From Candidatus Pacearchaeota archaeon (GTDB lineage Archaea > Nanobdellota > Nanobdellia > Pacearchaeales > DTIR01): DNA of 64,000 nt. The stretch is taken from assembly GCA_018303805.1 (NCBI GenBank), contig JAGVXL010000001.1:177528-241527 (forward strand), written 5' to 3'. The notes below the pieces were generated by a model. It had not been told where the DNA came from and ran no database searches. It saw only the letters and a program-made list of their open reading frames with translations. The position numbers were made by a program, and so were the translations under genes. This document shows positions 1 through 50,086 of this stretch, one piece after another (position 1 is the first letter of the stretch; every line of letters starts with the position of its first letter).

Positions 1-204
1 TAAATCAAGACCGTGTTTGTAAGGGTCGTGCCCTTTCTTTATTTCTATACTTTTTACAGCAGCAAGAACAAGTTTGCATATCCTTTTCAGATTGTATTCA
101 ATTTCTTCTTTAGTAAGGACATCGCCCAACTTTTGCTCTTTTCTCTGGATAGCGCCAATAAGCTGTTTATTTTCTGCCAGATTTAGAAATTGTTTTTCTC
201 CCAT
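1..204 (-). CDS. hypothetical protein, N-terminal part (gene runs off the left edge)
   Basis: The reverse-strand frame stays open to the window edge. There is an ATG at 204..202 and an alternative in-frame ATG at 219..217. The translation is MGEKQFLNLAENKQLIGAIQRKEQKLGDVLTKEEIEYNLKRICKLVLAAVKSIEIKKGHDPYKHGLDL. I recognised no motif. Confidence 0.3.
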   Translation of the reverse strand, partial: MGEKQFLNLAENKQLIGAIQRKEQKLGDVLTKEEIEYNLKRICKLVLAAVKSIEIKKGHDPYKHGLDL

Positions 205-309
205 CCGGAATATAAGCATAACTAATATATATCCTTTATGAATTTACGATATATTCCATGTTAATTTTCAGAAATCTTTAAATAATAATCTGATTTCAAA
301 TTGCATAAA

Positions 310-1080
310 ATGATAGATGTTCATTGCCATTTAGAGCAGAAGGATTACAATAAAGACAGAGAACATGTTATAGAACAATGCGCGAAAGAGTTAAAGGCAA
401 TGATAAGTTCTTGTGCTCATCTTCTCACAAGGAAGGATTACGAACTTGGCTTGGAAATGCACCAAAAATACAGAGATTTTGTTTTTCTCTCAATGGGTGT
501 GCATCCAATTTATATCAAAAAAGCAACTCCTGAAAAAATCGACAGGGCAGTCACGCTTGTAGAATCATATAAAGAAGATATTGTTGCGATTGGCGAAGTC
601 GGATTGGATTATTACTGGGTTAAGGATTCTGGGTTAAGAATAAAACAGCAGGATTTATTCAAGAGGTTTATAGGATTGGCTAAAAAACTAGAATTGCCTT
701 TAGTTATCCATTGCAGAGACGCAATAGAAGACACACTGAATATTCTGGAAGAAAATGCTGCTGGCATTAAAGTAATGATGCATTTATACTCATACAGAAA
801 GCATCTTCAGCGTCTTTTGGACAATGGTTATAGCATATCTATAGGACCAAGCATCTCAACCTCTAAAGACTTGAAGAAGATTGCAAGAGACATGCCTCTT
901 GATAGAATAATGCTCGAAACAGATTCTCCTTGGTTTGGTTTTGGGAAAAGAAACACTCCCCTTGCAATCAGGCAAGTAGCAGAAGAAATAGCAAAAATCA
1001 AGAGATGCGGCTTTGAAGAGATTTGGAAAGCTGCTGGAGCAAACGCAGTTAAGTTTTTTAATCTCCCTTTGCAGATATAA
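310..1080 (+). CDS. tatD: TatD-family metal-dependent hydrolase/DNase
   Basis: MIDVHCHL at the N-terminus, then GEVGLDYYW, LPLVIHCRDA and LETDSPW. This is the classic TatD metal-ligand pattern. The ORF-track start at 301 is TTG; the ATG at 310 is more likely. Confidence 0.85.
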   Translation: MIDVHCHLEQKDYNKDREHVIEQCAKELKAMISSCAHLLTRKDYELGLEMHQKYRDFVFLSMGVHPIYIKKATPEKIDRAVTLVESYKEDIVAIGEVGLDYYWVKDSGLRIKQQDLFKRFIGLAKKLELPLVIHCRDAIEDTLNILEENAAGIKVMMHLYSYRKHLQRLLDNGYSISIGPSISTSKDLKKIARDMPLDRIMLETDSPWFGFGKRNTPLAIRQVAEEIAKIKRCGFEEIWKAAGANAVKFFNLPLQI

Positions 1081-1098
1081 ACAAGACAAAGAGAAAAA

Positions 1099-1395
1099 AT
1101 GGAAATAATTCAGATACTGCTATTGAACCTCATTTTAATACTGGCATTCCCAACAGCCCTATTATTAGCAAAAACAACAAAAGAGGAGCTTAAATATGGA
1201 AGAGAAGCATTTGTTTTAATAATTGCTGTCTCATTTATTGTAACGCTAATTGCTCTATTGCTGAAGATAAGCAATGGGAATAAAATACTTGTTGTTTATA
1301 CTGCCTTTTTTATTATAGTAATAAGCGCTATGTCCTTGAATAAATCCTGCAATAAGGATAAAAAACGAAAAGCAAAGATAAAATGCTATATTTAA
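1099..1395 (+). CDS. small membrane protein (about 3 hydrophobic helices), unknown function
   Basis: 98-aa ORF with hydrophobic stretches and a basic C-terminus. It lies 18 nt after the tatD stop and overlaps the next gene's start. Confidence 0.45.
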   Translation: MEIIQILLLNLILILAFPTALLLAKTTKEELKYGREAFVLIIAVSFIVTLIALLLKISNGNKILVVYTAFFIIVISAMSLNKSCNKDKKRKAKIKCYI

Positions 1396-2114
1396 TTGGT
1401 TTAGGTTTGGACAAGAATGATTTAAGCTTTAAATCATATGAAGCAATCAAAAAATGCAAAAAAGTGTATTTGGAAACTTACACTTCAATCATGCCATACA
1501 AGACAAAAGAACTTGAAAAATTGATAAAGAAAAAGATTGTTGAAGCTGACAGGGGGCAAATTGAGAATAGGGCTGAAGAGATGATTAAAGAGGCAAAAAA
1601 ATTAAGAATAGCCCTGCTTGTTTCAGGAGACCCTCTCTCCGCAACAACACATATTGATTTAATAATGCGGGCAAAAAAAGCAGGGATAAAAACAGGGATT
1701 ATTCATGCTCCCTCTATTCTCACAGCTGTGGCAGAAACCGGACTGCAGCTTTATAAGTTCGGCAAGACAACAAGCATACCAAAATTCCAGCAGAATTTTG
1801 AGCCAGAAAGTTTCTATGATATCATGCTTGAAAATTTGAAAATTCAGGCCCATACTTTATTGCTCCTGGATATTGGCTTGGATGTAAAAGAAGCGCTTTC
1901 TTACATAAAAAAAATCTCAGAGAAAAGAAATGACAGCATAAAGGAAAAGATTTTTGTTGTTTGCAGCGAAGTTGGGACTGAAAAATCATCATTTAAGGTT
2001 GGCAAGATAGATGAGCTGCTGAAGGAGAAAGAGGAATCCAAATTGCCTGCATGCATAATTCTGCCATCCTCTTTGCATTTCCTTGAGGCAGAAATGCTCG
2101 GAATCAAGCCTTGA
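1383..2114 (+). CDS. dph5: diphthine synthase (tetrapyrrole-methylase fold)
   Basis: MLYLIGLGL...VYLETYTS...LVSGDPLSATTH...YKFGKTTSIP matches the conserved diphthine synthase layout. Confidence 0.85.
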   Translation: MLYLIGLGLDKNDLSFKSYEAIKKCKKVYLETYTSIMPYKTKELEKLIKKKIVEADRGQIENRAEEMIKEAKKLRIALLVSGDPLSATTHIDLIMRAKKAGIKTGIIHAPSILTAVAETGLQLYKFGKTTSIPKFQQNFEPESFYDIMLENLKIQAHTLLLLDIGLDVKEALSYIKKISEKRNDSIKEKIFVVCSEVGTEKSSFKVGKIDELLKEKEESKLPACIILPSSLHFLEAEMLGIKP

Positions 2115-2406
2115 AGAAATAAAAATATTTTTTCTCTACATTCCCTTTTAAAATCTTAACACCCTCTTTTTTAAGCAGTTTAATCTTCTTTCTAACTCCG
2201 AGATTATAGCCCCCAACCCTGCCGTCAGCATACACAACGCGATGGCATGGAATCTTGACAAGGTGGAGATTGCAGGCAAGAGCCATCGCAACAACACGGG
2301 GATGAATTTCAAGAATTCCTGCAATTTCCTTGTAGCTTGTAACCCTGCCTTTTGGAATCTTCTTTGCAAGTTCAAGAACTCTATTTTGGATTTTGATATT
2401 TCTCAT
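2104..2406 (-). CDS. MGMT-family (O6-alkylguanine-DNA alkyltransferase) DNA-binding/active-site domain protein
   Basis: 100 aa carrying the PCHRVV active-site motif and the preceding helix-turn-helix (GRVTSYKEIA). It has only the C-terminal Ogt domain. Confidence 0.75.
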   Translation of the reverse strand: MRNIKIQNRVLELAKKIPKGRVTSYKEIAGILEIHPRVVAMALACNLHLVKIPCHRVVYADGRVGGYNLGVRKKIKLLKKEGVKILKGNVEKKYFYFFKA

Positions 2407-3433
2407 CGAATATTATTCCTATCATTAAACTTGCAAGCTTATTTGAGTCGTGCCTTATTGGAGGCAATCGAGAGTTGCTCTCGAGACTTTTTTTTATCAG
2501 ATTATTTAAAATGCTCTGCTCAATTACCATATCTCTCCCGTATAAATCAATGTTTCTGCCATTCAGCTCTTTTTCTTTAAATTCTACAAGATGTTTGCAT
2601 TCTTTTTTATAAGCTTGCAATAGTTTAGTGTCTAAATTAGCCTTGTCATTATAGGTTATAATATTTACAACATCCTTGCCAAGATACTTTTCAATATCAT
2701 TGAAATGGTCCGCAACAGAGTAATTTGGGGTTTCAGAAGGCTTCGTCATTATATTGCAATTGTATATCTTTAACGCCTTGGAATCCCTTATGGCATCTGC
2801 CATTCCATCAGCAAGAAAATTGCATATTATGCTTGTGTATAAGTCACCAGGCCCTATAATAATAGCATCTGCCTCTGCTAATGCCTCCAAGGCTCTTGGA
2901 TTTGCCCTTATGTTCTGATTTGAATATAACCTTTCAATCCTTGCCATATCCGGATTCTCAAACCTATCTATAATATCTTCCCTGCTTAACACAGTTCCAT
3001 TCTTGTATACCCCGCTAATATGCGCCTTATCCTTAGTAACTGGCATTACTCTCCCCTTCACATTGAATATTCTATGTGCTTTCTCTAAAGCCACTTCCTC
3101 ATCTCCCTTGGACAGATTTGTGAGTGCAAGCATAGTAAGATTTCCGTATCTATGCTCATTTAAGCTTCCATTATCAAACCTGTAATTAAGCAGCTCTCTC
3201 AAATCTTCCTGTGCCTCAGATAATGCCAATAATCCTTGTATTATATCCCCATAAGGTAATATTCCATACTCATCCCTTAATCTCCCAGAACTGCCCCCAG
3301 AATCAGTTGCTGCAGTAATAAATTTTATGTCAATGCTGTCATCCTCCTCCTTCCTTGCAGCATACTTCTTCAATCCTTCCAGTAACCTAAAAGAACCGCT
3401 GCCTCCACCTATAGTCACTACCTTCTTTCTCAT
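2381..3433 (-). CDS. CofD/YvcK-family protein (UPF0052; 2-phospho-L-lactate transferase-like)
   Basis: VVTIGGGSGSF N-terminus, TDSGGSSGRLRDEYGILPYGDI and GPGDLYTSI motifs. Ends in TAG. Confidence 0.75.
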   Translation of the reverse strand: MRKKVVTIGGGSGSFRLLEGLKKYAARKEEDDSIDIKFITAATDSGGSSGRLRDEYGILPYGDIIQGLLALSEAQEDLRELLNYRFDNGSLNEHRYGNLTMLALTNLSKGDEEVALEKAHRIFNVKGRVMPVTKDKAHISGVYKNGTVLSREDIIDRFENPDMARIERLYSNQNIRANPRALEALAEADAIIIGPGDLYTSIICNFLADGMADAIRDSKALKIYNCNIMTKPSETPNYSVADHFNDIEKYLGKDVVNIITYNDKANLDTKLLQAYKKECKHLVEFKEKELNGRNIDLYGRDMVIEQSILNNLIKKSLESNSRLPPIRHDSNKLASLMIGIIFDEKYQNPK

Positions 3434-3522
3434 TGTTATACCGCAAGGCTAAATGGTTAAATATCTTTTGGATTTGGCTTGCACAAGTCAAAATTTAAAA
3501 ATGCAGCAGGATTCAGACTAGC

Positions 3523-6318
3523 ATGTATAACTTCAAGGAAGTTGAAGGGCAAGCAAGGGAAATTTGGGAAAAGCATGAAAAAGAGATTGAAAAATCTGTT
3601 CAGGAAAGAAGGGGAAGGCTATTTTCTTTTCTAGAGGGGCCCCCAACCGCCAATGCCCCCCCTGGCCTGCACCATCTTGAACTTAGAACCTATAAAGATT
3701 TGATATGCAAGTTTAAGTTTATGCAGGGCTTTTCTGTTCCAAGGAAAGGCGGATGGGACTGCCATGGATTGCCTGTAGAAGTACAGATTGAAAAAAAACT
3801 CAATCTAAACTCCAAAAAAGATATTGAAAAGCATGGCGTTGAGAAATTTATCAAGGAATGCAGGGAAAGTGTTTTTTCTTATATAGAAGAGTGGGAAAAA
3901 TCAACACAAGAACTAAACTACTGGATTGATTTGGAAAATCCATACAGAACTCTCGACAATGATTATACTGAAAGTGTCTGGTGGAGTCTCAAAGAATTAT
4001 ACAATAAGAAACTTTTATACGAAGACAAGAAAGTTGTGCCTTTTTGCCCAAGATGCGAAACACCATTGTCAAGCCACGAAGTGGCACAGGGTTATAAAAA
4101 ATTAAAGGAGGAAACAATTGTGGCCAAATTTAAGCTGGAATCAGGGGAATATATGCTGGCTTGGACAACAACTCCCTGGACTTTGCCCTCAAATTTGGCT
4201 CTGGCTGTCAATCAAAATATAGATTATGCTGTTGTTGAAAAAGATGGAAGAAAATACATTTTAGCCAAAGAACTTGTTAAAAACTTCTTTTCAAAGGCAA
4301 AGATAATTAAAACATTTAAGGGCGAGGATTTGCTTGGGAAGAAATATGAGCCGCTTCTTCCATATTACAATAATCTGAAAAATTCATTTAAGATAATAGA
4401 AGGAGATTTTGTAGAATTGGCAGAAGGCACAGGCATTGTTCATATGGCTCCTGCTTTTGGAGAAGTTGATTTTGAAGCATGCAGGAAGAATGGAATTGAT
4501 TTTGTAAACCCGGTTAATACCAACGGAAAGTTCAGTCATGAGATTCCTGAACTGGATGGCACTTTTATCAAGGCAGCTGATGCGAAGATAACTGAAAAAC
4601 TGGAAAAAGAAGGGAAATTATTCACGAAAATTTCCTATGAACATGATTATCCTTATTGCTGGAGATGCGAGTCTCCTTTGATGTATTATGCAATCAGGTC
4701 GTGGTTTATCAGAGTTTCAAAGGTTAAGGAAGATATGATAAGGTTGAATAAAAAAATTAATTGGGTTCCGGACTATATCCAAGATGGCAGATTTGGAGAT
4801 TGGCTGGAAAATATAAAAGACTGGGCATTGTCAAGAAATAAATTCTGGGGAACTCCATTGCCTGTTTGGAGATGTGAATGCGGGAATGAAATTATTATAG
4901 GAAGTATTGAAGAATTAAAGAAGAATTCTGTAAAGAAACTGGCAGAAAAGGAGATTGATTTACACAAGCCATGGATAGAGAATGTAAAGCTTAAATGCAA
5001 ATGCAGTAAGGAAATGGCAAGGGTTTCAGAAGTTATTGACTGCTGGTATGATTCTGGATGCGCCAGTTTTGCACAATTTCATTATCCCTTTGAGAACAAG
5101 GAATATTTCAAGAAAAGGTATCCTTATGATTTCATTGCAGAGGGGATTGACCAGACACGGGGATGGTTCTACACTCTGCATGCTATTGGAACAATCCTCT
5201 TTGGCAAAGAGGCATACAAAAATGTAATTTGTGCCGGGCATATTGTTGATGAAAATGGCGAGAAAATGTCTAAAAGCAAAGGGAATATAATCCCCCAAAG
5301 AGAGATATTTGATAATGTGGGAGTTGATGCAACAAGGCTGCAATTCTGTACAAGTGATACAGGCAACCAAAAAAGATTCTCGGCTAATCTGGTTAAGGAG
5401 AGTGTTCTGCCATTCCTGACCATATTAATTAATGCGAATAAATATTGCTCTGAATCAGAGAATGGGAAGGAAACCCAAAAAATAGAAGATAAATGGATTT
5501 TATCTAGATTAAATTCAACTATTAATAATGCAACCTCTTTCCTGGAAAAATTTGATATTAATAATGCTTATGCAGAAATATCTGGATTTGTTGTTAACGA
5601 TTTATCCAGGGGGTATATTAAGATGACAAGAGAGAGAAAAACCAAGCCAATATTAAAGGAAGTTCTGATGAAAATTGTGCTGATTTTAGCTCCTTTTGCT
5701 CCCTATATAAGTGAGTATATCTATTCCCAATTCAGCAAAAATTCCGTGCATTTGTCAAACTGGCCTAAAGTTGACAAGAAAAAAATTGACAAGAAACTTG
5801 AGCAGGGTATGGCTATTGCACAGGAGATTATAGAGAGAATACTCTCGGAAAGAGCAAAACCAGGGGTAGGAATTAGGTGGCCTCTTGCCAAGGCAATAAT
5901 CCATACAAAAGAGGAAAATACAAAAATCTTAATGAAAATGCAAGAGATAATCAAGCTGCAGGGAAATATCAAGGAGATAAAAATAAAAAAATCAAGAGAG
6001 GAGAAAGTTGAACTCGACATAAAAATAACTCCGGAACTGGAGGCAGAGGGCTTTTCAAGGGAGATATGCAGAAGAGTGCAGGAAGCAAGGAAAAAATTAG
6101 GCATGCAAAAAGGGCAGAAGATTGATATTCTAGTAAAATCTGATTCAGAACTCCAGAAAATGCTGCAAAAGAATGAAGAATTCATAAAAGAAAGGGTGAA
6201 TGCCTCAAGATTGAAATTTTCAGCAGAAGAAACTCCAGAAGAATACAAATTTTCAGCAGAAGAGGAGATTAGGGGCAGGAAAATAGAAATACATTTCAGT
6301 ATAACTAAAAAAGAGTGA
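3523..6318 (+). CDS. ileS: isoleucyl-tRNA synthetase
   Basis: Class I signature GPPTANAPPGLHH, GWDCHGLPVE, the editing-domain region and KMSKSKGN. At 931 aa it is short for IleRS. Confidence 0.9.
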   Translation: MYNFKEVEGQAREIWEKHEKEIEKSVQERRGRLFSFLEGPPTANAPPGLHHLELRTYKDLICKFKFMQGFSVPRKGGWDCHGLPVEVQIEKKLNLNSKKDIEKHGVEKFIKECRESVFSYIEEWEKSTQELNYWIDLENPYRTLDNDYTESVWWSLKELYNKKLLYEDKKVVPFCPRCETPLSSHEVAQGYKKLKEETIVAKFKLESGEYMLAWTTTPWTLPSNLALAVNQNIDYAVVEKDGRKYILAKELVKNFFSKAKIIKTFKGEDLLGKKYEPLLPYYNNLKNSFKIIEGDFVELAEGTGIVHMAPAFGEVDFEACRKNGIDFVNPVNTNGKFSHEIPELDGTFIKAADAKITEKLEKEGKLFTKISYEHDYPYCWRCESPLMYYAIRSWFIRVSKVKEDMIRLNKKINWVPDYIQDGRFGDWLENIKDWALSRNKFWGTPLPVWRCECGNEIIIGSIEELKKNSVKKLAEKEIDLHKPWIENVKLKCKCSKEMARVSEVIDCWYDSGCASFAQFHYPFENKEYFKKRYPYDFIAEGIDQTRGWFYTLHAIGTILFGKEAYKNVICAGHIVDENGEKMSKSKGNIIPQREIFDNVGVDATRLQFCTSDTGNQKRFSANLVKESVLPFLTILINANKYCSESENGKETQKIEDKWILSRLNSTINNATSFLEKFDINNAYAEISGFVVNDLSRGYIKMTRERKTKPILKEVLMKIVLILAPFAPYISEYIYSQFSKNSVHLSNWPKVDKKKIDKKLEQGMAIAQEIIERILSERAKPGVGIRWPLAKAIIHTKEENTKILMKMQEIIKLQGNIKEIKIKKSREEKVELDIKITPELEAEGFSREICRRVQEARKKLGMQKGQKIDILVKSDSELQKMLQKNEEFIKERVNASRLKFSAEETPEEYKFSAEEEIRGRKIEIHFSITKKE

Positions 6319-25889: not shown

Positions 25890-27512
25890 ATGGAAAGACA
25901 GCCAATATTTATACTGCCAGAGAATGTCCAGAGGATGATGGGAAGAGACGCTCAAAGAAACAACATAATGGCTGCAAGATTAGTTGCCGATACCGTCAAG
26001 ACTACGCTAGGGCCAAAAGGCATGGACAAGATGCTTGTTTCTAGCATTGGAGACATAACAGTAACCAATGATGGCGTTACAATCCTTGAGGAGATGGAAA
26101 TAGAGCATCCTGCAGCTAAAATGATGGTTGAAATTGCCAAAACTCAGGAAGCAGCTGTTGGGGACGGCACAACTACTGCTGTTGTAATTGCAGGCAAGCT
26201 CCTTGAAAATGCTGAATTTCTGCTTGACAAGAAAATACATCCTACGGTAATCGCAAAGGGATACAGGATTGCGGCGGAAAAAGCTCAGGAAATTTTAGAG
26301 GAAATAGCAACAAAAATAACACCCAAGGAGGAATTATTATTGAAATATATCGCAATGACTGCAATGACTGGAAAGGGGGCAGAGACTGCAAAAGATAAAT
26401 TCTCGGATATTGTTGTCAAGGCCGTTAAGATGGTATATGAAAACAACAAAGTGGATATGGCAAACATCAAACTTGAGAAGAGAAAGGGGAAAGGGGTGGA
26501 AGATTCCGAACTTATTGAAGGGATAGTCCTTGACAAAGAAAAAGTTCATGGAGACATGCCTTCTTTTGTGAAGAACGCAAAAATTGCCTTAATAGATTCT
26601 GCACTTGAGATAAAGAACCTTGAAACAGACACTAAAATAAGTGTTAGCAGCCCTGAGCAGCTGCAGGAATTCCTCAATCAGGAGGAGAAAATCCTGAAGA
26701 ATATGGTTGAAAAAATCAAAAAGGCAGGGGCAAATGTGGTTTTCTGCCAGAAGGGTATTGATGATATAGCACAATACTATCTGACAAAGGGGGGGATATA
26801 TGCCTGCAGAAGAATAGCAAAGAGTGATATGGACAAGCTTGCAAAGGCGACTGGCGGAAAGATAATAAGCAATTTGAATGAATTAACAGGCAAGGAGCTT
26901 GGAAAGGCTGCTGAAGTAAGCGAAGAGAAAGAAGGGGAAGAAGCATTAACAAATATCAAGGGCTGCCCTAACCCTAAAGCATTGACAATCCTTATCAGGG
27001 GCGGAACAGAGCATGTTATTGATGAAATGGAAAGGGCAATAAAAGATGCTCTGGGGGATGTTGCAGCTGCGTTGACAGTTGGAAAGATTGTTGCTGGAGG
27101 CGGCGGGATAGAGGCAGAGCTTGCAAAAAGGCTGAGAGATTTTTCACAGGGGTTAAGCGGCAGAGAGCAGCTCGCAGTAGAGCAGTTTGTTGCGGCATTA
27201 GAATCAATTCCCGCGACTCTCGCAGAGAATGCTGGTTTGGACCCTATTGATGTTTTGACAGAATTAAAGGCCAGGCATGAAAAAGGCGAGAAGAATGCTG
27301 GGCTAAACCTATTCACAAACAAGATAGAGGATGTGATGAAAGTGGGGATTATAGAGCCATTGAAAATCAAGACGCAGGCGATTGATTCTGCATCTGAAGT
27401 TGCGATGATGATTCTCAGGATAGATGATGTTATTGCCTCTTCCGGAGGCGGGGCTCCAAGAGGAATGCCTCACGGCGGAATGGGCGGCATGCCAGAAGGC
27501 GGGGAATATTAA
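25890..27512 (+). CDS. ths: thermosome subunit (group II chaperonin)
   Basis: [39 protein letters not shown], and a C-terminal GGMGGM tail. Confidence 0.95.
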
Positions 27513-27922: not shown

Positions 27923-27940
27923 CCAAAAATATATAAAAAT
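27923..27940 (-). terminator. T-rich tract after the tRNA cluster (also contains a TATA-like TTTATATA for the next gene)
   Basis: The reverse strand reads ATTTTTATATATTTTTGG, beginning 5 nt after the last tRNA discriminator base. Confidence 0.35.
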
Positions 27941-27945
27941 AGCCA

Positions 27946-27970
27946 TGCGCCAGCCGGGACTCGAACCCGG
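27946..27970 (-). tRNA. 3' portion (T-arm + 3' acceptor strand + discriminator) of an interrupted tRNA ('tRNA-X')
   Basis: CCGGG-UUCGAGU-CCCGG-CUGGCGC-A is a perfect T-arm with a canonical T-loop. The acceptor strand pairs 7/7 with GCGCUAG at 29126..29120. Confidence 0.7.
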
Positions 27971-27980
27971 ATAGCATAAA

Positions 27981-28051
27981 TGCAGCTTGCGGGGATTGAA
28001 CCCGCAGCTCGAGCTTGGGAAGCTCGCATTTTACCATTAAACTAAAGCTGC
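27981..28051 (-). tRNA. tRNA-Gly (anticodon CCC), 71 nt, CCA not encoded
   Basis: Hand fold: GCAGCUU-UA-GUUU-AAUGGUA-AAAU-G-CGAGC-UUCCCAA-GCUCG-AGCU-GCGGG-UUCAAUC-CCCGC-AAGCUGC-A. All four stems pair. Confidence 0.85.
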
Positions 28052-29061
28052 GTTCTAAAAGGGAGGGATTCTTTAAAATTTGTTATCGCTCCCTTCAATT
28101 CTTTCTTAGAGGGAATATCACCATTCTTTATAAAATATTTATATCTTTCTATATTCTTAGGATTCGAACTTCCTATTAATTTAAAGAAGCTATGCAGTTC
28201 ATTTTGATTTTGTATCCTTACATTAAAAGAGTATCTTTTAAGAAATCCTGATTTATTTGTACTTTTTGATGGAGTAAAATTAATTTTCTTTAATAAGCAT
28301 ATTATATTATGGCTAATAATTTTTGAGTTTGTCTGAAATTCAATTATTGCTCTATTATATCTTTTCTGTTTTCTGTAAATTCCGCCATCAGTATCTAATA
28401 AACCTCTTAACGCTCCATAAATAAATTCTTTTTTTTCAGAAATCCATGAAGGTAGATGAGCACCATTCTTTATTTTATTCCCTACAGTCAGGCTATTATT
28501 TTTTAAAAATTTAATAAGCTCTGAAGAGTAGCAATCAAGAATTATTGTATTTTTATTGGTATAACTAATAAAAATTTTAGAATCAATGCCAAAAAGTTTC
28601 TTTATTTGTTCAGAGATATAATCTAAATGATTTTTTTCGTAAGGAAATTCGCTGGTGATAGTTAACTCTCCTTCTTCTAAATGACCATCACCTAATATAA
28701 CACCTAATAATTCTGCAAGTTCTTCACTTTTTTCAGGTATTTTTATTTTCTTTTTATTTTTGCCCCCCGCAGATTTTTGTCCCCAGTTTGCAGGAAGAAT
28801 TTTTTCTACCCATTTTGATTGGATAGTTTCCCATTCTTCAAATGGATAGACCTTAAGAAGAGAATAAGCAATTTTATAAGGAATTGTAGACCTCTCTTTT
28901 TGCCATTCTACTCTTAAAGTATACTCGCTAAGATTTATACTATCTGCCAGGGCTTTCCATGTCAGTCCGCTGTTCTTCTTTATTTTTCTCACAAATAATT
29001 TTTGGAATCCTTTCTTGAATTTAACCCTATTATCGATTATACACTCCCCCCTCTTTCTCAT
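28042..29061 (-). CDS. LAGLIDADG homing endonuclease (two-motif, monomeric type) with an N-terminal HTH-like region
   Basis: Motif 1 is LLGVILGDGHL and motif 2 is LRGLLDTDGGIY. The ORF ends in TAG, and its last 10 nt overlap the 5' acceptor strand of tRNA-Gly. Confidence 0.85.
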   Translation of the reverse strand: MRKRGECIIDNRVKFKKGFQKLFVRKIKKNSGLTWKALADSINLSEYTLRVEWQKERSTIPYKIAYSLLKVYPFEEWETIQSKWVEKILPANWGQKSAGGKNKKKIKIPEKSEELAELLGVILGDGHLEEGELTITSEFPYEKNHLDYISEQIKKLFGIDSKIFISYTNKNTIILDCYSSELIKFLKNNSLTVGNKIKNGAHLPSWISEKKEFIYGALRGLLDTDGGIYRKQKRYNRAIIEFQTNSKIISHNIICLLKKINFTPSKSTNKSGFLKRYSFNVRIQNQNELHSFFKLIGSSNPKNIERYKYFIKNGDIPSKKELKGAITNFKESLPFRTQL

Positions 29062-29101
29062 TTATCCTATAGAGCAAACCACTATATAAATATTTCTTTT
29101 T

Positions 29102-29126
29102 TTCTTAGCCATTGGACCACTAGCGC
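29102..29126 (-). tRNA. 5' portion (acceptor strand + D-arm) of the interrupted tRNA ('tRNA-X')
   Basis: GCGCUAG-UG-GUCC-AAUGGCUA-AGA with U8, A14, G18G19 and A21 in place. The D-arm closely resembles that of tRNA-Val in this window (GUCC-AGUGGUUA-AGAC). Confidence 0.6.
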
Positions 29127-29150
29127 ATATATCCTAAAATATAACAATCC

Positions 29151-29157
29151 TTATAAA
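29151..29157 (-). promoter_or_regulatory. TATA box for the tRNA-X / LAGLIDADG / tRNA-Gly transcription unit
   Basis: The reverse strand has TTTATAA lying 24 nt upstream of the first tRNA-X nucleotide, which is typical archaeal spacing. Confidence 0.5.
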
Positions 29158-29178: not shown

Positions 29179-29685
29179 ATGGCAGAAAGAACAGAGATAG
29201 AAAAGGAAACAAGAATGCTTATAGCATTGGACATACTTTACAAGCCTTTTTCCAGCTTGGGTGCCAAGGGCAAGAGGAAAGCAGAAAAACATGCAAAGAG
29301 CATAGTTTCTTTTTTAAAAGAAGGCGAGGAGAAAGGCGAGAGGATTTTTGCAAGAGTTGAGAAGAGAGACGAGGAAAAGGCGAGAGATCTAAGGGAGGGA
29401 ATAGATGCCTTCAAAGAAGAATACCCGCAGTACGGAAAACTGCTTGAAAAATGCATAAAGGAAAAAAGAATGAGCCATAATAAGTATATTATCTATGGGT
29501 TAAGCGAGGGGTTTAAGTTAGGAGAAGAGGATTATGTTAAGGTAATGATGGGTTTAGGATTTGAAAGAAGGGAAGCCAATTCTGTCTATCCTCACATTTT
29601 AGCTATTTCAGACCGCTTGGGCAAGGCAGTAGAGCAAGCTGAAAGAATCATGCTCATACCACAGAAAAAGCAAAAGGAAAAATGA
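29179..29685 (+). CDS. hypothetical protein (168 aa)
   Basis: The start is set at ATG 29179 (MAERTEIEK...). The longer ORF-track version overlaps the tRNA-X / LAGLIDADG region. It overlaps the next gene by 4 nt (ATGA). Confidence 0.5.
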   Translation: MAERTEIEKETRMLIALDILYKPFSSLGAKGKRKAEKHAKSIVSFLKEGEEKGERIFARVEKRDEEKARDLREGIDAFKEEYPQYGKLLEKCIKEKRMSHNKYIIYGLSEGFKLGEEDYVKVMMGLGFERREANSVYPHILAISDRLGKAVEQAERIMLIPQKKQKEK

Positions 29686-30071
29686 AAGTTCGTGAAGTAA
29701 TGGGCAAGCCAAATGTTGTTTCCCCTGAAACAACTATCTTGGAAGCGGCAAAAATCATGGCTGAAAAAGATGTGACAACCCTCTTTGTTATTGAGGGGCA
29801 GAAAGTCATAGGAATCATAACTGATATGGATATAATAAAAAGATGCGTTATCCAGAATAAGAAAGCAGGGGATGTTAAGGCAAAGGACATTATGACTTCC
29901 AAGCTTGTAACAGTTGATGCAGATGATAATGTGGAGTATGCAGTTAATGTCATGCTTGAGAACAAAATCAGGAGATTGCCTGTTGTTTCAAAAGGCCGGT
30001 TTGTCGGCATCATTACAACAGATTATATCTCAGCGCATGCCGATGAACTTGGTGTTGATTCATTATTTTGA
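29682..30071 (+). CDS. CBS-pair domain protein
   Basis: Two CBS repeats (VREVMGKPNVVSP..., AKDIMTSKLVTV...RRLPVV). Confidence 0.75.
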   Translation: MKVREVMGKPNVVSPETTILEAAKIMAEKDVTTLFVIEGQKVIGIITDMDIIKRCVIQNKKAGDVKAKDIMTSKLVTVDADDNVEYAVNVMLENKIRRLPVVSKGRFVGIITTDYISAHADELGVDSLF

Positions 30072-31466: not shown

Positions 31467-31583
31467 TGAGCCCGCTCGGGTTCGAACCGAGGATCTCCAC
31501 CGCTCTCAATCTTTTTCTCTCCAAGGTCTCTTCCTAAGAGAGCTTTTGTGAGGGTAGCGTCTTAACCACTGGACTACGGGCTC
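31467..31583 (-). tRNA. tRNA-Val (anticodon CAC) with a 44-nt intron at 37/38 (31546..31503)
   Basis: GAGCCCG-UA-GUCC-AGUGGUUA-AGAC-G-CUACC-CUCACA[44 nt]C-GGUGG-AGAUC-CUCGG-UUCGAAC-CCGAG-CGGGCUC-A. CUCA (32-35) pairs with UGAG near the intron's 3' end, which puts both splice sites in 3-nt bulges. Confidence 0.8.
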
Positions 31584-49579: not shown

Positions 49580-50086
49580 ATGGAGATTATTATAATAGGA
49601 AGGGGTGGTCAAGGGGCTGTAAAGGCAGCACAGCTCCTTGCAACTTCTGCATTCCTGTCTGGATATGAGGCCCAAGCATTCCCAATGTTTGGAGTTGAAA
49701 GGAGGGGCGCTCCTGTTAGCTCCTTTGTCAGGATAAGCGACAAGCCGATAAAGACAAGAGCGCAAATCGAAAGGGCGGATTATGCAGTTATCCTAGACGC
49801 AACACTGCTTAATTCAAGAAAGATAGATGCAAGAACAATAATCCTCAATTCAAGCAAGCTGCCTGCGAAATGCAGGGGGATAGATGCAGACGCCATTGCT
49901 TCAAAAATATTCCCAAAAGGAATAAACACTGTGATGATAGCGGCATTTGCTTTCTTAACAGGCATAATAGAAAAAGATGCCCTGCTCAATGCATGTAAGG
50001 AAATCTTTGAAGGAGAAATGGCAAACAAAAACATACAGATTGTAGAGGAAACGTTTTCAAGCTTGGTAAAATTGAGGAAAAAATGA
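49580..50086 (+). CDS. porG: pyruvate/2-oxoacid:ferredoxin oxidoreductase gamma subunit
   Basis: IIGRGGQGAVKAAQLLA...FPMFGVERRGAPV. Confidence 0.85.
   Translation: MEIIIIGRGGQGAVKAAQLLATSAFLSGYEAQAFPMFGVERRGAPVSSFVRISDKPIKTRAQIERADYAVILDATLLNSRKIDARTIILNSSKLPAKCRGIDADAIASKIFPKGINTVMIAAFAFLTGIIEKDALLNACKEIFEGEMANKNIQIVEETFSSLVKLRKK

Follow-up and report, generated by a model that had tools for sequence, protein, structure and literature searches.

A mobile cassette carrying a LAGLIDADG endonuclease gene and a tRNA-Gly(CCC) gene replaces the anticodon arm of a resident tRNA-Gly(CCC) gene in a DPANN archaeon

Homing endonuclease genes normally spare their host by riding in introns or inteins. 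Another group of mobile DNA, the integrase-driven elements, inserts into tRNA genes and carries a copy of the tRNA part that is displaced, the 3' part. In phage T4, the free-standing GIY-YIG endonuclease SegB is encoded in the phage tRNA gene cluster and undergoes "intronless homing", during which adjacent tRNA genes are copied along with the endonuclease gene as the break is repaired, and the markers of the recipient are lost (PMC2330249). In archaea, Pacearchaeota, Woesearchaeota and Aenigmarchaeota carry rRNA introns with LAGLIDADG genes, and all 39 of the 39 archaeal group I introns surveyed are located in rRNA genes, with none in tRNA genes (PMC6125680). Split and tri-split tRNAs, as well as mobile tRNA introns, have been described in Nanoarchaeum and Thermoproteales. 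Their pieces are joined at the RNA level; a working tRNA arises by way of leaders that are complementary to each other and of a bulge-helix-bulge motif (PMC10714607).

The locus studied here is located on the minus strand of a 64-kb stretch of Pacearchaeota DNA, hereafter named the window. A preliminary description had recognised a tRNA gene split by a 1.1-kb cassette with a LAGLIDADG gene and a complete tRNA-Gly(CCC). The elements that it listed were all found at their minus-strand coordinates, and uninterrupted orthologous alleles agree with the split. The features of the locus, in the direction of reading, are the following.

29157..29151, minus strand: resident promoter, TATA box TTTATAA, 24 nt upstream of G1 of the 5' piece
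29126..29103, minus strand: 5' relic of the resident tRNA-Gly(CCC), acceptor 5' strand and D-arm, tRNA positions 1-24
29102..29091, minus strand: left end of the cassette, purine-rich BRE-like stretch (AAAAAAAGAAATA region), missing from uninterrupted alleles
29090..29083, minus strand: putative cassette-borne TATA box TTTATATA, 21 nt before the ORF ATG
29082..29062, minus strand: relic tRNA D-arm GTGGTTTGCTCTATAGGATAA, which holds the left arm of a 12-nt inverted repeat
29061..28042, minus strand: LAGLIDADG ORF, 339 aa, with an N-terminal helical domain of ~110 aa
28051..27981, minus strand: complete cassette-borne tRNA-Gly(CCC) (ARAGORN; Rfam tRNA, 69.1 bits, model positions 1-71)
27980..27975, minus strand: right end of the cassette, fast-evolving spacer TTTATG, part of the right arm of the inverted repeat
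27974..27946, minus strand: 3' relic of the resident tRNA-Gly(CCC), variable loop CTAT, T-arm, acceptor 3' strand and A73, positions 44-73
27945..27923, minus strand: T-rich stretch TGGCTATTTTTATATATTTTTGG, 3' of the resident tRNA gene, likely terminator of the whole unit

The 5' relic reads GCGCTAG-TG-GTCC-AATGGCTA-AGA, and its acceptor strand pairs with that of the 3' relic at 7/7 positions, one of them G-U, as had been seen before. The earlier reading of the TATA box TTTATAA, of two LAGLIDADG motifs in the ORF and of a foldable tRNA-Gly(CCC) was likewise borne out by the sequence, by a Pfam match and by ARAGORN and Rfam, respectively. The first 10 nt of this tRNA form the end of the ORF, stop codon included. 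The borders of the outer pieces had to be shifted. The 5' piece had been drawn to 29102, but the A at this position belongs to the cassette, the uninterrupted allele having C. The 3' piece had been drawn at 27970..27946, which does hold the T-arm, the acceptor 3' strand and A73, but its real start is 4 nt earlier, with CTAT at 27974. The preliminary description had also not named the broken gene as tRNA-Gly(CCC), and had recorded neither the cassette TATA box at 29090..29083 nor the nature of the left-arm stretch of the inverted repeat, a relic D-arm. The LAGLIDADG gene is the sole long ORF between the two relics, where no integrase gene is found, and it is not in frame within any host protein. 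The arrangement is genuine and not an assembly artefact; it recurs as a whole in the independent assemblies L162 and L001.

Uninterrupted alleles, which the preliminary description had proposed to look for in related genomes, were located via a neighbouring 168-aa gene. In three relatives (L163, L164 and L165), the orthologous locus holds a tRNA-Gly(CCC) gene that is uninterrupted and is preceded by the same promoter, and a block ATTGTTAAATTTATAAGGATT at the resident TATA box is common to these alleles and the window. In L164, the promoter is followed by GCGCTAGTGGTCCAATGGCTAAGAC-T-TGAGC-TTCCCAA-(60-nt intron)-GCTCA-CTAT-CCGGGTTCGAGTCCCGG-CTGGCGC-A. This gene scores 42.6 bits with the Rfam tRNA model, and the gene of L163, which has no intron, scores 61.1 bits. 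L165 has a 5' exon identical to that of the window, then CGAGC-TTCCCAA, on a contig that breaks off further downstream. The intron adjoins the anticodon loop in both L164 and L165. The 5' relic of the window is identical to the 5' exons of L164 and of L165 (24/24 nt), and the 3' relic is identical to the 3' exon of L164 (29/29 nt). Similarity between the window and the uninterrupted alleles ends after tRNA position 24. Relative to L163 and L164, positions 25-43 are missing from the outer pieces, as expected from the earlier remark that the outer tRNA has no anticodon arm. ARAGORN, a check suggested beforehand, called no tRNA on the joined outer pieces alone, and called a tRNA-Gly(CCC) when the anticodon arm of L164 was set between them. 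Since the uninterrupted orthologous alleles lie behind the same promoter and the exons of L164 equal both outer pieces, the "split tRNA" formed by these pieces is what is left of the tRNA-Gly(CCC) gene resident in this DPANN archaeon, in which a cassette of 1128 bp (29102..27975, minus strand) has taken the place of the anticodon arm (positions 25-43). The site shows a presence/absence polymorphism, with the cassette in the window, L162 and L001 and an intact gene in L163, L164 and L165. One of the three readings offered beforehand, that of a tRNA gene destroyed by an endonuclease and tRNA-Gly cassette, is proved by these alleles.

The left end of the cassette has counterparts in related loci. 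In most of them an equivalent purine-rich stretch precedes the TATA box, and the stretch at 29102..29091 may serve as a BRE. Of 38 distinct related loci, 30 have a TATA-like motif at a distance of 18-45 nt upstream of the ATG, and the box at 29090..29083 is a candidate promoter. At the position homologous to the relic D-arm, other loci resemble the 5' part of a tRNA, e.g. TAGTTTATCGGTAGTAT. A D-arm-like pattern was found there in 25/38 loci, versus 8.6% of control windows, and in the one-layer loci L107/L109 a genuine tRNA 5' fragment directly adjoins the ATG. The stretch at 29082..29062 is the remnant of an older insertion layer. At the other end of the cassette, L001 has TAAAAGTGG in the place of the spacer TTTATG.

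The 339-aa ORF matches Pfam LAGLIDADG_3 (E=5e-9) through the motifs LGVILGDGH and LRGLLDTDGG. Among 21 homologues, G124-D125-G126 and D223-T224-D225-G226-G227 are invariant, and thus both D125 and D225. An AlphaFold model (mean pLDDT 88.9) and Foldseek comparison predicted a double LAGLIDADG fold, with alpha-beta-beta-alpha-beta-beta-alpha twice. The best Foldseek matches were the TliVMA intein endonuclease domain (E=3e-11), I-Tsp061I (TM 0.75 on target) and I-DmoI (TM 0.68); WhiA and the bI3 maturase were also among the structural matches, and a PDB profile search with the ORF matched 7qsu and 2dch. The modelled protein looks like an active single-chain LAGLIDADG homing endonuclease. It shares the fold and catalytic motifs of I-DmoI, I-Tsp061I and PI-PfuI and differs from them by an extra N-terminal domain of ~110 aa, which is helical and conserved among the homologues. 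Its activity would be that of an endonuclease, with a target site probably in a tRNA gene. As for the archaeal rRNA-intron endonucleases, which occur in the same phyla, the putative target is a highly conserved RNA gene. Comparison of the ORF with that of L001 gave 23, 13 and 62 differences at codon positions 1, 2 and 3, which indicates purifying selection on the endonuclease gene.

We then compared the window with L001 beyond the ORF. Over the whole block that the two relics delimit, their outermost bases included, the two sequences are 90-100% similar; directly outside it, the similarity falls to 56-76%. Divergence at fourfold-degenerate sites is 0.22 in the endonuclease gene versus 0.55-0.61 in the two flanking genes. 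Being ~3x less diverged, the cassette is younger than its flanks, an indication that it is mobile. The cassette tRNA-Gly(CCC) is identical at 71/71 nt, though the ORF differs by 10%. No difference was found in the 53 nt of the two relics, where ~12 would be expected at the rate of the ORF fourfold sites. Homing that was recent or separate would agree with this number if the tRNA gene entered was perfectly conserved, and the L164 exons are indeed identical too; it could also be a sign of selection on the relics.

To assess the distribution of the unit, homologues of the ORF were collected, and ~60 of them with 46-63% identity were found in DPANN assemblies. In 49 loci, 40 of them distinct, a same-strand tRNA-Gly(CCC) overlaps the end of the ORF or follows it closely. 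This linkage or overlap is near-universal across several DPANN phyla and persists down to 33% identity, and distant relatives are linked to other tRNAs, including tRNA-Ser(GGA) in CPR bacteria. The tRNA fragments were found by pattern and complementarity scans and by eye, as an nhmmer profile of 27 inner tRNAs matched complete tRNAs only, fragments of 25 nt scoring too low. In at least 11 distinct loci, the outer 5' and 3' acceptor strands pair 7/7 with differing sequences (GCGCTAG/CTGGCGC, GCAGCCA/TGGCTGC, GCGCCAT/ATGGCGC, GCACCAG/CTGGTGC and others), and in these loci the outer 5' piece always ends at tRNA position 24-25. Some 3' pieces (L107, L091, L092 and L009) still hold a decayed TTCCCAA anticodon loop. 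Other loci have a T-arm cut within the T-loop or no 3' piece at all, and scars nested in one another show that insertions were repeated in some. When L005 is compared with L087, the inner tRNA shows 0/72 differences and the outer 5' piece 4/24, and the 3' piece of L005 is degenerate. The identity of the ORF shows no more than a moderate correlation with that of the inner tRNA (Spearman 0.41) and of the outer piece (0.29), in pairs that are non-independent, and this correlation was given no weight as evidence. The search of viral contigs returned no close relative of the ORF (best 23-28% identity), for which reason a viral vector for the cassette was rejected.

We consider it likely that a mobile cassette bearing an endonuclease and its own tRNA replaced the anticodon arm of the resident tRNA-Gly(CCC) and left the relics behind. 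In this cassette, a putative BRE/TATA promoter and the relic D-arm are followed by the LAGLIDADG gene and an overlapping tRNA-Gly(CCC) of a different sequence type. The cassette tRNA would assume the decoding of GGG, and the resident ends at 29126..29103 and 27974..27946 would be non-functional relics. In tRNA-Gly(CCC) genes that lack the cassette, the endonuclease would cleave close to where the D-arm meets the anticodon stem. A copy with the cassette would then be the template for repair, with the conserved 5' and 3' portions of the gene acting as short homology arms, and the endonuclease gene and its tRNA would therefore be copied in jointly. Such homing would be "intronless", with the element supplying a replacement for the gene that it destroys. 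Transcription would probably start at the resident promoter, the cassette promoter or both and stop at the T-rich terminator of the resident gene; RNase P and tRNase Z would release the tRNA from the transcript.

Among the described systems, T4 SegB shares with the cassette an endonuclease gene outside any intron or intein and among tRNA genes, and a target, here a predicted one, in the tRNA gene sequence of relatives that lack the endonuclease gene. Neighbouring markers are inherited along, as in systems of the T4 Seg/Mob type, and the limits of the block of identity coincide exactly with the two ends of the outer tRNA. Unlike SegB, a GIY-YIG enzyme of a phage, the cassette enzyme belongs to the LAGLIDADG family and to cellular DPANN chromosomes, without a close relative on viral contigs. 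The cassette is also inserted inside a tRNA gene, of which it deletes the anticodon arm, and brings a replacement tRNA with the same anticodon that overlaps the ORF. Cleavage by the cassette endonuclease is a prediction. Intron and intein endonucleases ride in elements, self-splicing or spliced by enzymes, that restore the host gene at the RNA or protein level; the cassette, in contrast, destroys the host gene, and a second gene compensates at the DNA level. The cassette resembles the integrase-driven elements in having a tRNA gene as target, in keeping a working tRNA and in leaving a displaced resident piece at its border. Unlike them, it has a single ORF and no integrase, and there are no direct att repeats, the relics being the non-overlapping positions 1-24 and 44-73. 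It supplies a whole tRNA, and in some loci apparently the 5' part, where those elements supply the 3' part.

Two observations count against the homing model. The anticodon loop of the cassette tRNA is the same as in the cassette-free alleles, and for L165 so is the anticodon stem, although the cassette tRNA would have to be immune to the endonuclease. The sole hint of how it might escape cutting is that, in each of the 20 loci compared, at least 5 of 24 positions distinguish it from the 5' part of the resident gene. The other observation is the 0/53 relic differences from L001.

This last number also speaks for a view that we regard as unlikely, namely that the outer pieces, though they have ceased to be a tRNA, are retained because they serve some function. 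Their acceptor stem and T-arm could form a tRNA-like "top half" around the 1.1-kb insert, a handle (RNase P, tRNase Z, CCA addition) by which the endonuclease mRNA/tRNA transcript is processed or stabilised; or they could be homology arms that selection on the element keeps intact for further homing. Between the window and L001, the relics have stayed unchanged despite 22% divergence at the ORF fourfold sites, and the spacer beside the 3' relic was rebuilt. An acceptor stem and a T-arm form in RNAfold from the joined ends, the 7/7 acceptor pairing is kept in the 11 or more distinct loci, and Rfam gave a sub-threshold tRNA-like match to mascRNA-menRNA (16.4 bits, 27947..28008). However, many loci have an intact ORF and tRNA next to a 3' piece that is absent, cut in the T-loop or degenerate, and the outer 5' piece changed at 4/24 positions between L005 and L087 with the inner tRNA unchanged. 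Recent homing into a perfectly conserved tRNA gene explains the identity equally well, the L164 exons being identical.

A further possibility, to which we give a very low probability, concerns the protein. It could be a domesticated factor, e.g. a regulator or maturase of tRNA-Gly(CCC), and its linkage to the tRNA would then reflect a shared function and not mobility. The near-universal linkage or overlap in several DPANN phyla down to 33% identity, the conserved N-terminal helical domain and the purifying selection on the gene are all compatible with such a role, and there are other cases of co-opted LAGLIDADG folds, the structural matches including WhiA and the bI3 maturase. On the other hand, close relatives differ in whether this locus contains the gene, its insertion destroyed a resident tRNA gene, the cassette is younger than its flanks, and loci carry nested scars of repeated insertions. 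Both catalytic aspartates are also invariant.

The two remaining readings of the preliminary description, in which the outer pieces would still yield a tRNA, fared worst. The first, in which a giant archaeal-type intron harbours a tRNA as well as the endonuclease gene and is spliced out to give a functional outer tRNA, has next to no chance of being correct. The 7/7 pairing of the outer acceptor strands and the intact resident promoter and terminator would suit it. So would the 12-nt inverted repeat near the cassette ends, proposed to zip the outer parts together; its 11/12 complementarity is present in the window and was reached by only 2 of 2000 shuffles. But this repeat is not conserved, the best match being 7/12 in the 90%-identical L001 and nothing comparable being found in 35 other loci. 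The bulge-helix-bulge fold suggested as a check was not seen in the MFE fold, where the junctions lie in unpaired stretches (the 5' junction included) and neither is flanked by helices. No group I intron was matched in Rfam at E<=10. Without positions 25-43, as seen against the uninterrupted alleles, the spliced product would have no anticodon arm, so splicing could not yield a decoding tRNA, and ARAGORN does not call the joined pieces a tRNA.

It is equally hard to believe in the second, a tri-split tRNA with an anticodon-arm piece encoded elsewhere and joined in trans, although the missing part is exactly the anticodon arm and Caldivirga offers precedents (PMC10714607). As in split tRNAs, an archaeal tRNA gene is found in separate pieces and mobile DNA is involved in its disruption; unlike split tRNAs, the pieces of the window cannot make a decoding tRNA, and such pieces decay. 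Within the 64-kb window, no CCC-anticodon stem-loop that could be the middle piece exists outside coding ORFs, hairpins with TTCCCAA occurring only at 49674 and 59710, inside long ORFs and without tRNA flanks. Beside the break points, where conserved complementary leaders would be expected, there are a promoter and a spacer that changes fast. The relics are decaying, truncated or lost in relatives, and a complete tRNA-Gly(CCC) is already present inside the cassette.

Two other ways of joining were rejected: a D-loop intron joining GTCC to GGAT at 29066 (the D-stem of L164 and L015 is GTCC/AGAC, nearly complete in the 5' piece), and splicing of the outer 5' piece to the inner tRNA body (GCGCTAG pairs with the inner AAGCTGC at 4/7 positions by eye).

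If the homing model is right, the cassette suggests a third way for homing endonuclease genes in cellular genomes, which is to break an essential RNA gene and deliver a working substitute alongside, in effect a natural gene-replacement drive. It offers a concrete and testable source of archaeal tRNA gene fragments that could otherwise be mistaken for split tRNAs or giant introns. Together, the cassettes provide a natural collection of LAGLIDADG enzymes, with defined tRNA genes as their probable targets. According to an old idea, tRNA introns and split tRNA genes protect against mobile elements, and the intron-bearing alleles L164 and L165 make this idea experimentally approachable. The linkage of the same protein superfamily to tRNAs in DPANN and CPR hints at exchange between these ultra-small symbiont groups. 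More speculatively, and with considerable doubt on our part, a superfamily of tRNA-gene-specific, replace-the-target homing elements could span both domains (DPANN and CPR). Every clade would be specialised on a single tRNA (Gly-CCC, Gly-UCC, Gly-GCC, Ser-GGA, Gln, Ala, Val, Phe or Glu), destroying the resident gene and installing a resistant copy. Such pressure would be a main reason for tRNA introns and pieces in these lineages, and the introns beside the anticodon loop in L164, L165 and many cassette tRNAs would confer immunity. We found no prior account of a LAGLIDADG-tRNA cassette in DPANN or CPR, in a literature search whose incomplete coverage leaves newness unproven.

Of the related loci, L002 differs in its pairing. 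Its outer 5' strand pairs perfectly with the inner 3' strand, and the 3' part of its tRNA may be derived from the resident gene.

All elements named in the preliminary description (TATA box, 5' piece, ORF, tRNA-Gly(CCC) and 3' piece) were present on the minus strand of the window, in the layout below. The TATA boxes, the purine-rich and D-arm-like stretches, the spacer, the outer 3' piece and the T-rich run were read from the sequence.

29157..29151, minus strand: TATA box TTTATAA
29126..29103, minus strand: outer 5' piece GCGCTAG-TG-GTCC-AATGGCTA-AGA, 24 nt after the TATA box TTTATAA
29102..29091, minus strand: purine-rich stretch
29090..29083, minus strand: second TATA box TTTATATA
29082..29062, minus strand: 21 nt resembling a degraded tRNA D-arm
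29061..28042, minus strand: 339-aa ORF, Pfam LAGLIDADG_3 match (E=5e-9)
28051..27981, minus strand: complete (inner) tRNA-Gly(CCC), called by ARAGORN; Rfam 69.1 bits
Between inner tRNA and outer 3' piece, minus strand: 6-nt spacer (TTTATG)
27974..27946, minus strand: outer 3' piece CTAT-CCGGG-TTCGAGT-CCCGG-CTGGCGC-A
After the outer 3' piece, minus strand: T-rich run

The ORF and the inner tRNA overlap by 10 nt, the end of the one serving as the start of the other, and the outer acceptor strands do pair at 7/7 positions, as had been claimed. A 168-aa gene (29179..29682, plus strand) divergently adjoins the outer 5' piece. Also on the plus strand are ORF 29682..30071, by eye resembling a 129-aa CBS-domain protein, with orthologues in the related loci L001, L162 and L163 that match Pfam CBS, and ORF 25890..27512, by eye resembling a thermosome (group II chaperonin) subunit. 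These neighbours are consistent with an archaeal genome of DPANN type. A second tRNA gene in the window (31467..31583, minus strand; Rfam 49.4 bits), missed by ARAGORN in default mode, reads by eye as tRNA-Val(CAC), its intron of some 46 nt adjoining the anticodon loop.

Relatives of the locus were located via the 168-aa neighbour gene, and the adjoining sequence was then inspected. The cassette, i.e., the insert carrying the ORF and the inner tRNA, was present in L162 and L001 (neighbour gene identity 99% and 79%, respectively). Uninterrupted alleles were found in three other loci. L163 (82%) has an intact, intron-less tRNA-Gly(CCC) (GCGCCAGTGGTTTATCGGTAGAATCTCTGCTTCCCAAGCAGATGGGCTGGGTTCAATTCCCAGCTGGCGCA; Rfam 61.1 bits), L164 (75%) an intact tRNA-Gly(CCC) with a 60-nt intron (GCGCTAGTGGTCCAATGGCTAAGAC-T-TGAGC-TTCCCAA-[60-nt intron]-GCTCA-CTAT-CCGGGTTCGAGTCCCGG-CTGGCGC-A; Rfam 42.6 bits), and L165 (81%) an intact 5' exon into the anticodon arm (GCGCTAGTGGTCCAATGGCTAAGAC-T-CGAGC-TTCCCAA), followed by an intron to the contig end. 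The promoter block ATTGTTAAATTTATAAGGATT is common to the window and all three alleles. The outer pieces of the window are identical to the L164 exons at 24/24 and 29/29 nt, and among 168 loci their exact strings occur only in L001, L162, L164 and L165. The proposed ARAGORN run on the outer pieces joined alone called no tRNA; with the L164 anticodon arm put between them, tRNA-Gly(CCC) was called. The uninterrupted alleles, the L164 exon identity and this last test identify the outer gene as the resident tRNA-Gly(CCC). By alignment, the break points fall after tRNA position 24 and before position 44, and positions 25-43 plus any intron have been replaced by 1128 bp (29102..27975). The alleles L163, L164 and L165, of the kind the preliminary description had proposed to look for in relatives, bear out one of its three readings, namely that a tRNA gene was destroyed by an endonuclease and tRNA-Gly cassette. 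Beyond the 3' relic there is no synteny between the window and L163 or L164; in those two loci, tRNA-Pro, endonuclease V and an MFS transporter occupy that side of the tRNA locus.

Introns of 12-60 nt at or adjoining the anticodon loop were seen in many tRNA-Gly(CCC) genes, both in cassettes (inner tRNA of L009, L010, L016, L017, L082, L086, L094, L099, L115, L116 and L127) and in cassette-free alleles (L164, 2804..2935; L165, 1..56). Such introns could shield these genes from cutting, should the recognition site of the endonuclease extend across the anticodon loop.

The reading as a tri-split tRNA with a middle piece encoded elsewhere found no candidate middle piece within the 64-kb window; the two TTCCCAA hairpins seen there belong to ORFs of 168 and 242 aa and are without tRNA flanks. 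A giant intron is not supported, since the product would be without an anticodon arm, the MFE structure predicted for 29126..29040 plus 27990..27946 has an unpaired 5' junction, no helices flanking either junction and none of the bulge-helix-bulge motif sought by this folding, and Rfam detected no group I intron at the locus at E<=10. The 12-nt inverted repeat, described as able to zip the outer parts together, is present with an 11/12 match, a rare value reached by 2/2000 shuffles, but as a zipper it lacks conservation: L001, with TAAAAGTGG as its spacer in place of TTTATG, gives the best match at 7/12, and nothing comparable was found in 35 other loci. We treat it as a local coincidence. In the related locus L019 (2088..3583), ARAGORN in intron mode called a "tRNA" with a 1407-nt intron across the whole LAGLIDADG ORF, which probably combines an outer 5' fragment and the 3' end of a downstream multi-intron tRNA. 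Gene finders can thus take cassette loci for giant-intron tRNAs.

A search of 5.8 billion proteins revealed about 60 relatives of the ORF (46-63% identity), nearly all from DPANN (Nanoarchaeota, Pacearchaeota, Woesearchaeota, Micrarchaeota); no close relative was found in the viral contigs searched. Among the related loci, taken from genomes and metagenomes, 49 (40 distinct) have an ORF that terminates within a same-strand tRNA-Gly(CCC) or just short of it, usually with an overlap of 10-15 nt. A TATA-like box lies 18-45 nt 5' of the ATG in 30/38 loci, and between the two a stretch like tRNA positions 8-25 (e.g., TAGTTTATCGGTAGTAT) was found in 25/38 loci versus 8.6% of control windows. Farther upstream, about 20 loci show by eye a clean tRNA 5' fragment ending at position 24-25, and many have a tRNA 3' fragment downstream of the inner tRNA. 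At least 11 distinct loci have outer acceptor strands that are complementary at 7/7 positions, with sequences differing between loci. These common features argue that the layout in the window is one instance of a recurring architecture. A complete tRNA-Gly(CCC) lies 5' of the ORF in L110 (tRNA 1374..1446, ORF 1501..2484), with a 3' acceptor remnant (…CTGGCGCA) after the ORF, and in L121 (tRNA 142..214, ORF 302..1291), with only a 3' acceptor remnant after it; the order of the cassette parts is therefore not fixed.

Compared with L001, the window is 100% identical in both relics and the inner tRNA, 92.5% in the promoter/relic stretch and 90.3% in the ORF; identity drops to 56-76% just beyond the ends of the outer tRNA. 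At fourfold-degenerate sites, the ORF has diverged by 0.22 and the two neighbouring host genes by 0.61 and 0.55, by which measure the cassette is much younger than the split of the two hosts. Transfer into a conserved tRNA gene at the orthologous site would produce this pattern. At the ORF fourfold-site rate, the relics should differ at about 12 positions, but 0/53 differences are seen. This is explained by homing, recent or separate, into a gene that is itself perfectly conserved, since the L164 exons are identical as well. A retained function of the relics, whether in tRNA-like processing as a handle or in homing as homology arms, is improbable. The ORF differences at codon positions 1, 2 and 3 (23, 13 and 62) indicate purifying selection, and the motif aspartates D125 and D225 are unchanged across 21 homologues. 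The AlphaFold model (mean pLDDT 88.9) has an N-terminal helical domain of about 110 aa and then a double LAGLIDADG core; in structure it most closely resembles intein endonuclease domains, the archaeal intron enzyme I-Tsp061I (TM 0.75) and I-DmoI, and a PDB profile search agreed.

The outer pieces appear to be relics of the resident gene, and in other loci they vary in state. L005 and L087 differ at 0/72 positions in the inner tRNA and at 4/24 in the outer 5' piece, and the L005 3' piece is degenerate. The 3' piece begins mid T-loop in L012, L089, L097 and L088, and none follows the inner tRNA in L002, L011, L095, L106 and L117 among the loci inspected. A decayed TTCCCAA is still visible in the 3' pieces of L107, L091, L092 and L009, which confirms tRNA-Gly(CCC) genes as the insertion targets and indicates that primary insertion occurred between positions 25 and ~32, with erosion afterwards. 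In L107 and L109, which have a single layer, the 5' fragment directly abuts the ATG; this explains the D-arm-like stretch that precedes the ATG in other loci as the scar of an older layer, its acceptor strand turned TATA box. Two 3' remnants in series follow the inner tRNA in L087 (downstream of tRNA 2473..2544), L005 and L094, first a full T-arm plus acceptor, then a second ending …CATGGGCGCA or …CATAGGCGCA, which suggests nested insertion layers on the right side of the cassette as well. L089 and L097 have outer 5' pieces with 2/24 differences and identical truncated 3' pieces, together with inner tRNAs differing at 17/71 positions and ORFs 75% identical, a hint that one cassette can be swapped for another at one resident site.

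Homing endonuclease genes usually lie at or near their own cut site. Given this proximity and the constant left junction at position 24-25, the predicted endonuclease would cut cassette-free tRNA-Gly(CCC) genes near the D-arm/anticodon-stem junction. Repair would copy in the donor cassette by crossing over within the conserved 5' and 3' portions of the tRNA gene. L002 suggests that the right-hand cross-over can fall within the tRNA body: its outer 5' strand (GCGGCTG) is a perfect complement of the downstream tRNA's 3' strand, while the 5' strand belonging to that tRNA has a G-U pair. The minimal mobile unit would then comprise the ORF together with the beginning of the tRNA, which would account for their overlap. 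In every locus compared, 5/24 positions or more distinguish the cassette tRNA from the resident 5' part, and this divergence could confer resistance to cutting. Transcription would probably start at either TATA box and end in the resident T-rich terminator. Cutting by RNase P at the tRNA 5' end would strip the stop codon from the mRNA, so that each transcript would give protein or tRNA, not both.

Our literature search found no description of such LAGLIDADG-tRNA cassettes. In a survey of archaeal group I introns, 39/39 were in rRNA genes (PMC6125680). The closest analogue is SegB of phage T4, a GIY-YIG endonuclease within a tRNA cluster, which recognises a TΨC-arm motif and drives the inheritance of its own gene and neighbouring tRNA genes (PMC2330249). 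The cassette is likewise a probable case of free-standing homing, but it differs in its cellular genomes, its LAGLIDADG enzyme, its tRNA-gene-destroying insertion and its built-in replacement.

More distant relatives of the ORF (24-33% identity; L018-L081, L129-L161) are almost always followed by a complete same-strand tRNA of clade-specific identity. In about 45 loci this is tRNA-Ser(GGA); the titles of most of them name CPR bacteria, and those of a few name Omnitrophota or other bacterial MAGs (e.g., L021, L025 and L039, with the ORF end at ~3500 and the tRNA at ~3500-3620). The archaeal loci have Ala(GGC), Gln(UUG), Val(UAC), Phe(GAA), Glu(UUC) or Gly(UCC) tRNAs, and in several loci a Gly(GCC) tRNA lies next to the ORF on the opposite strand. 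Fragments of tRNA 5' or 3' parts surround the ORF in several of these distant-relative loci.
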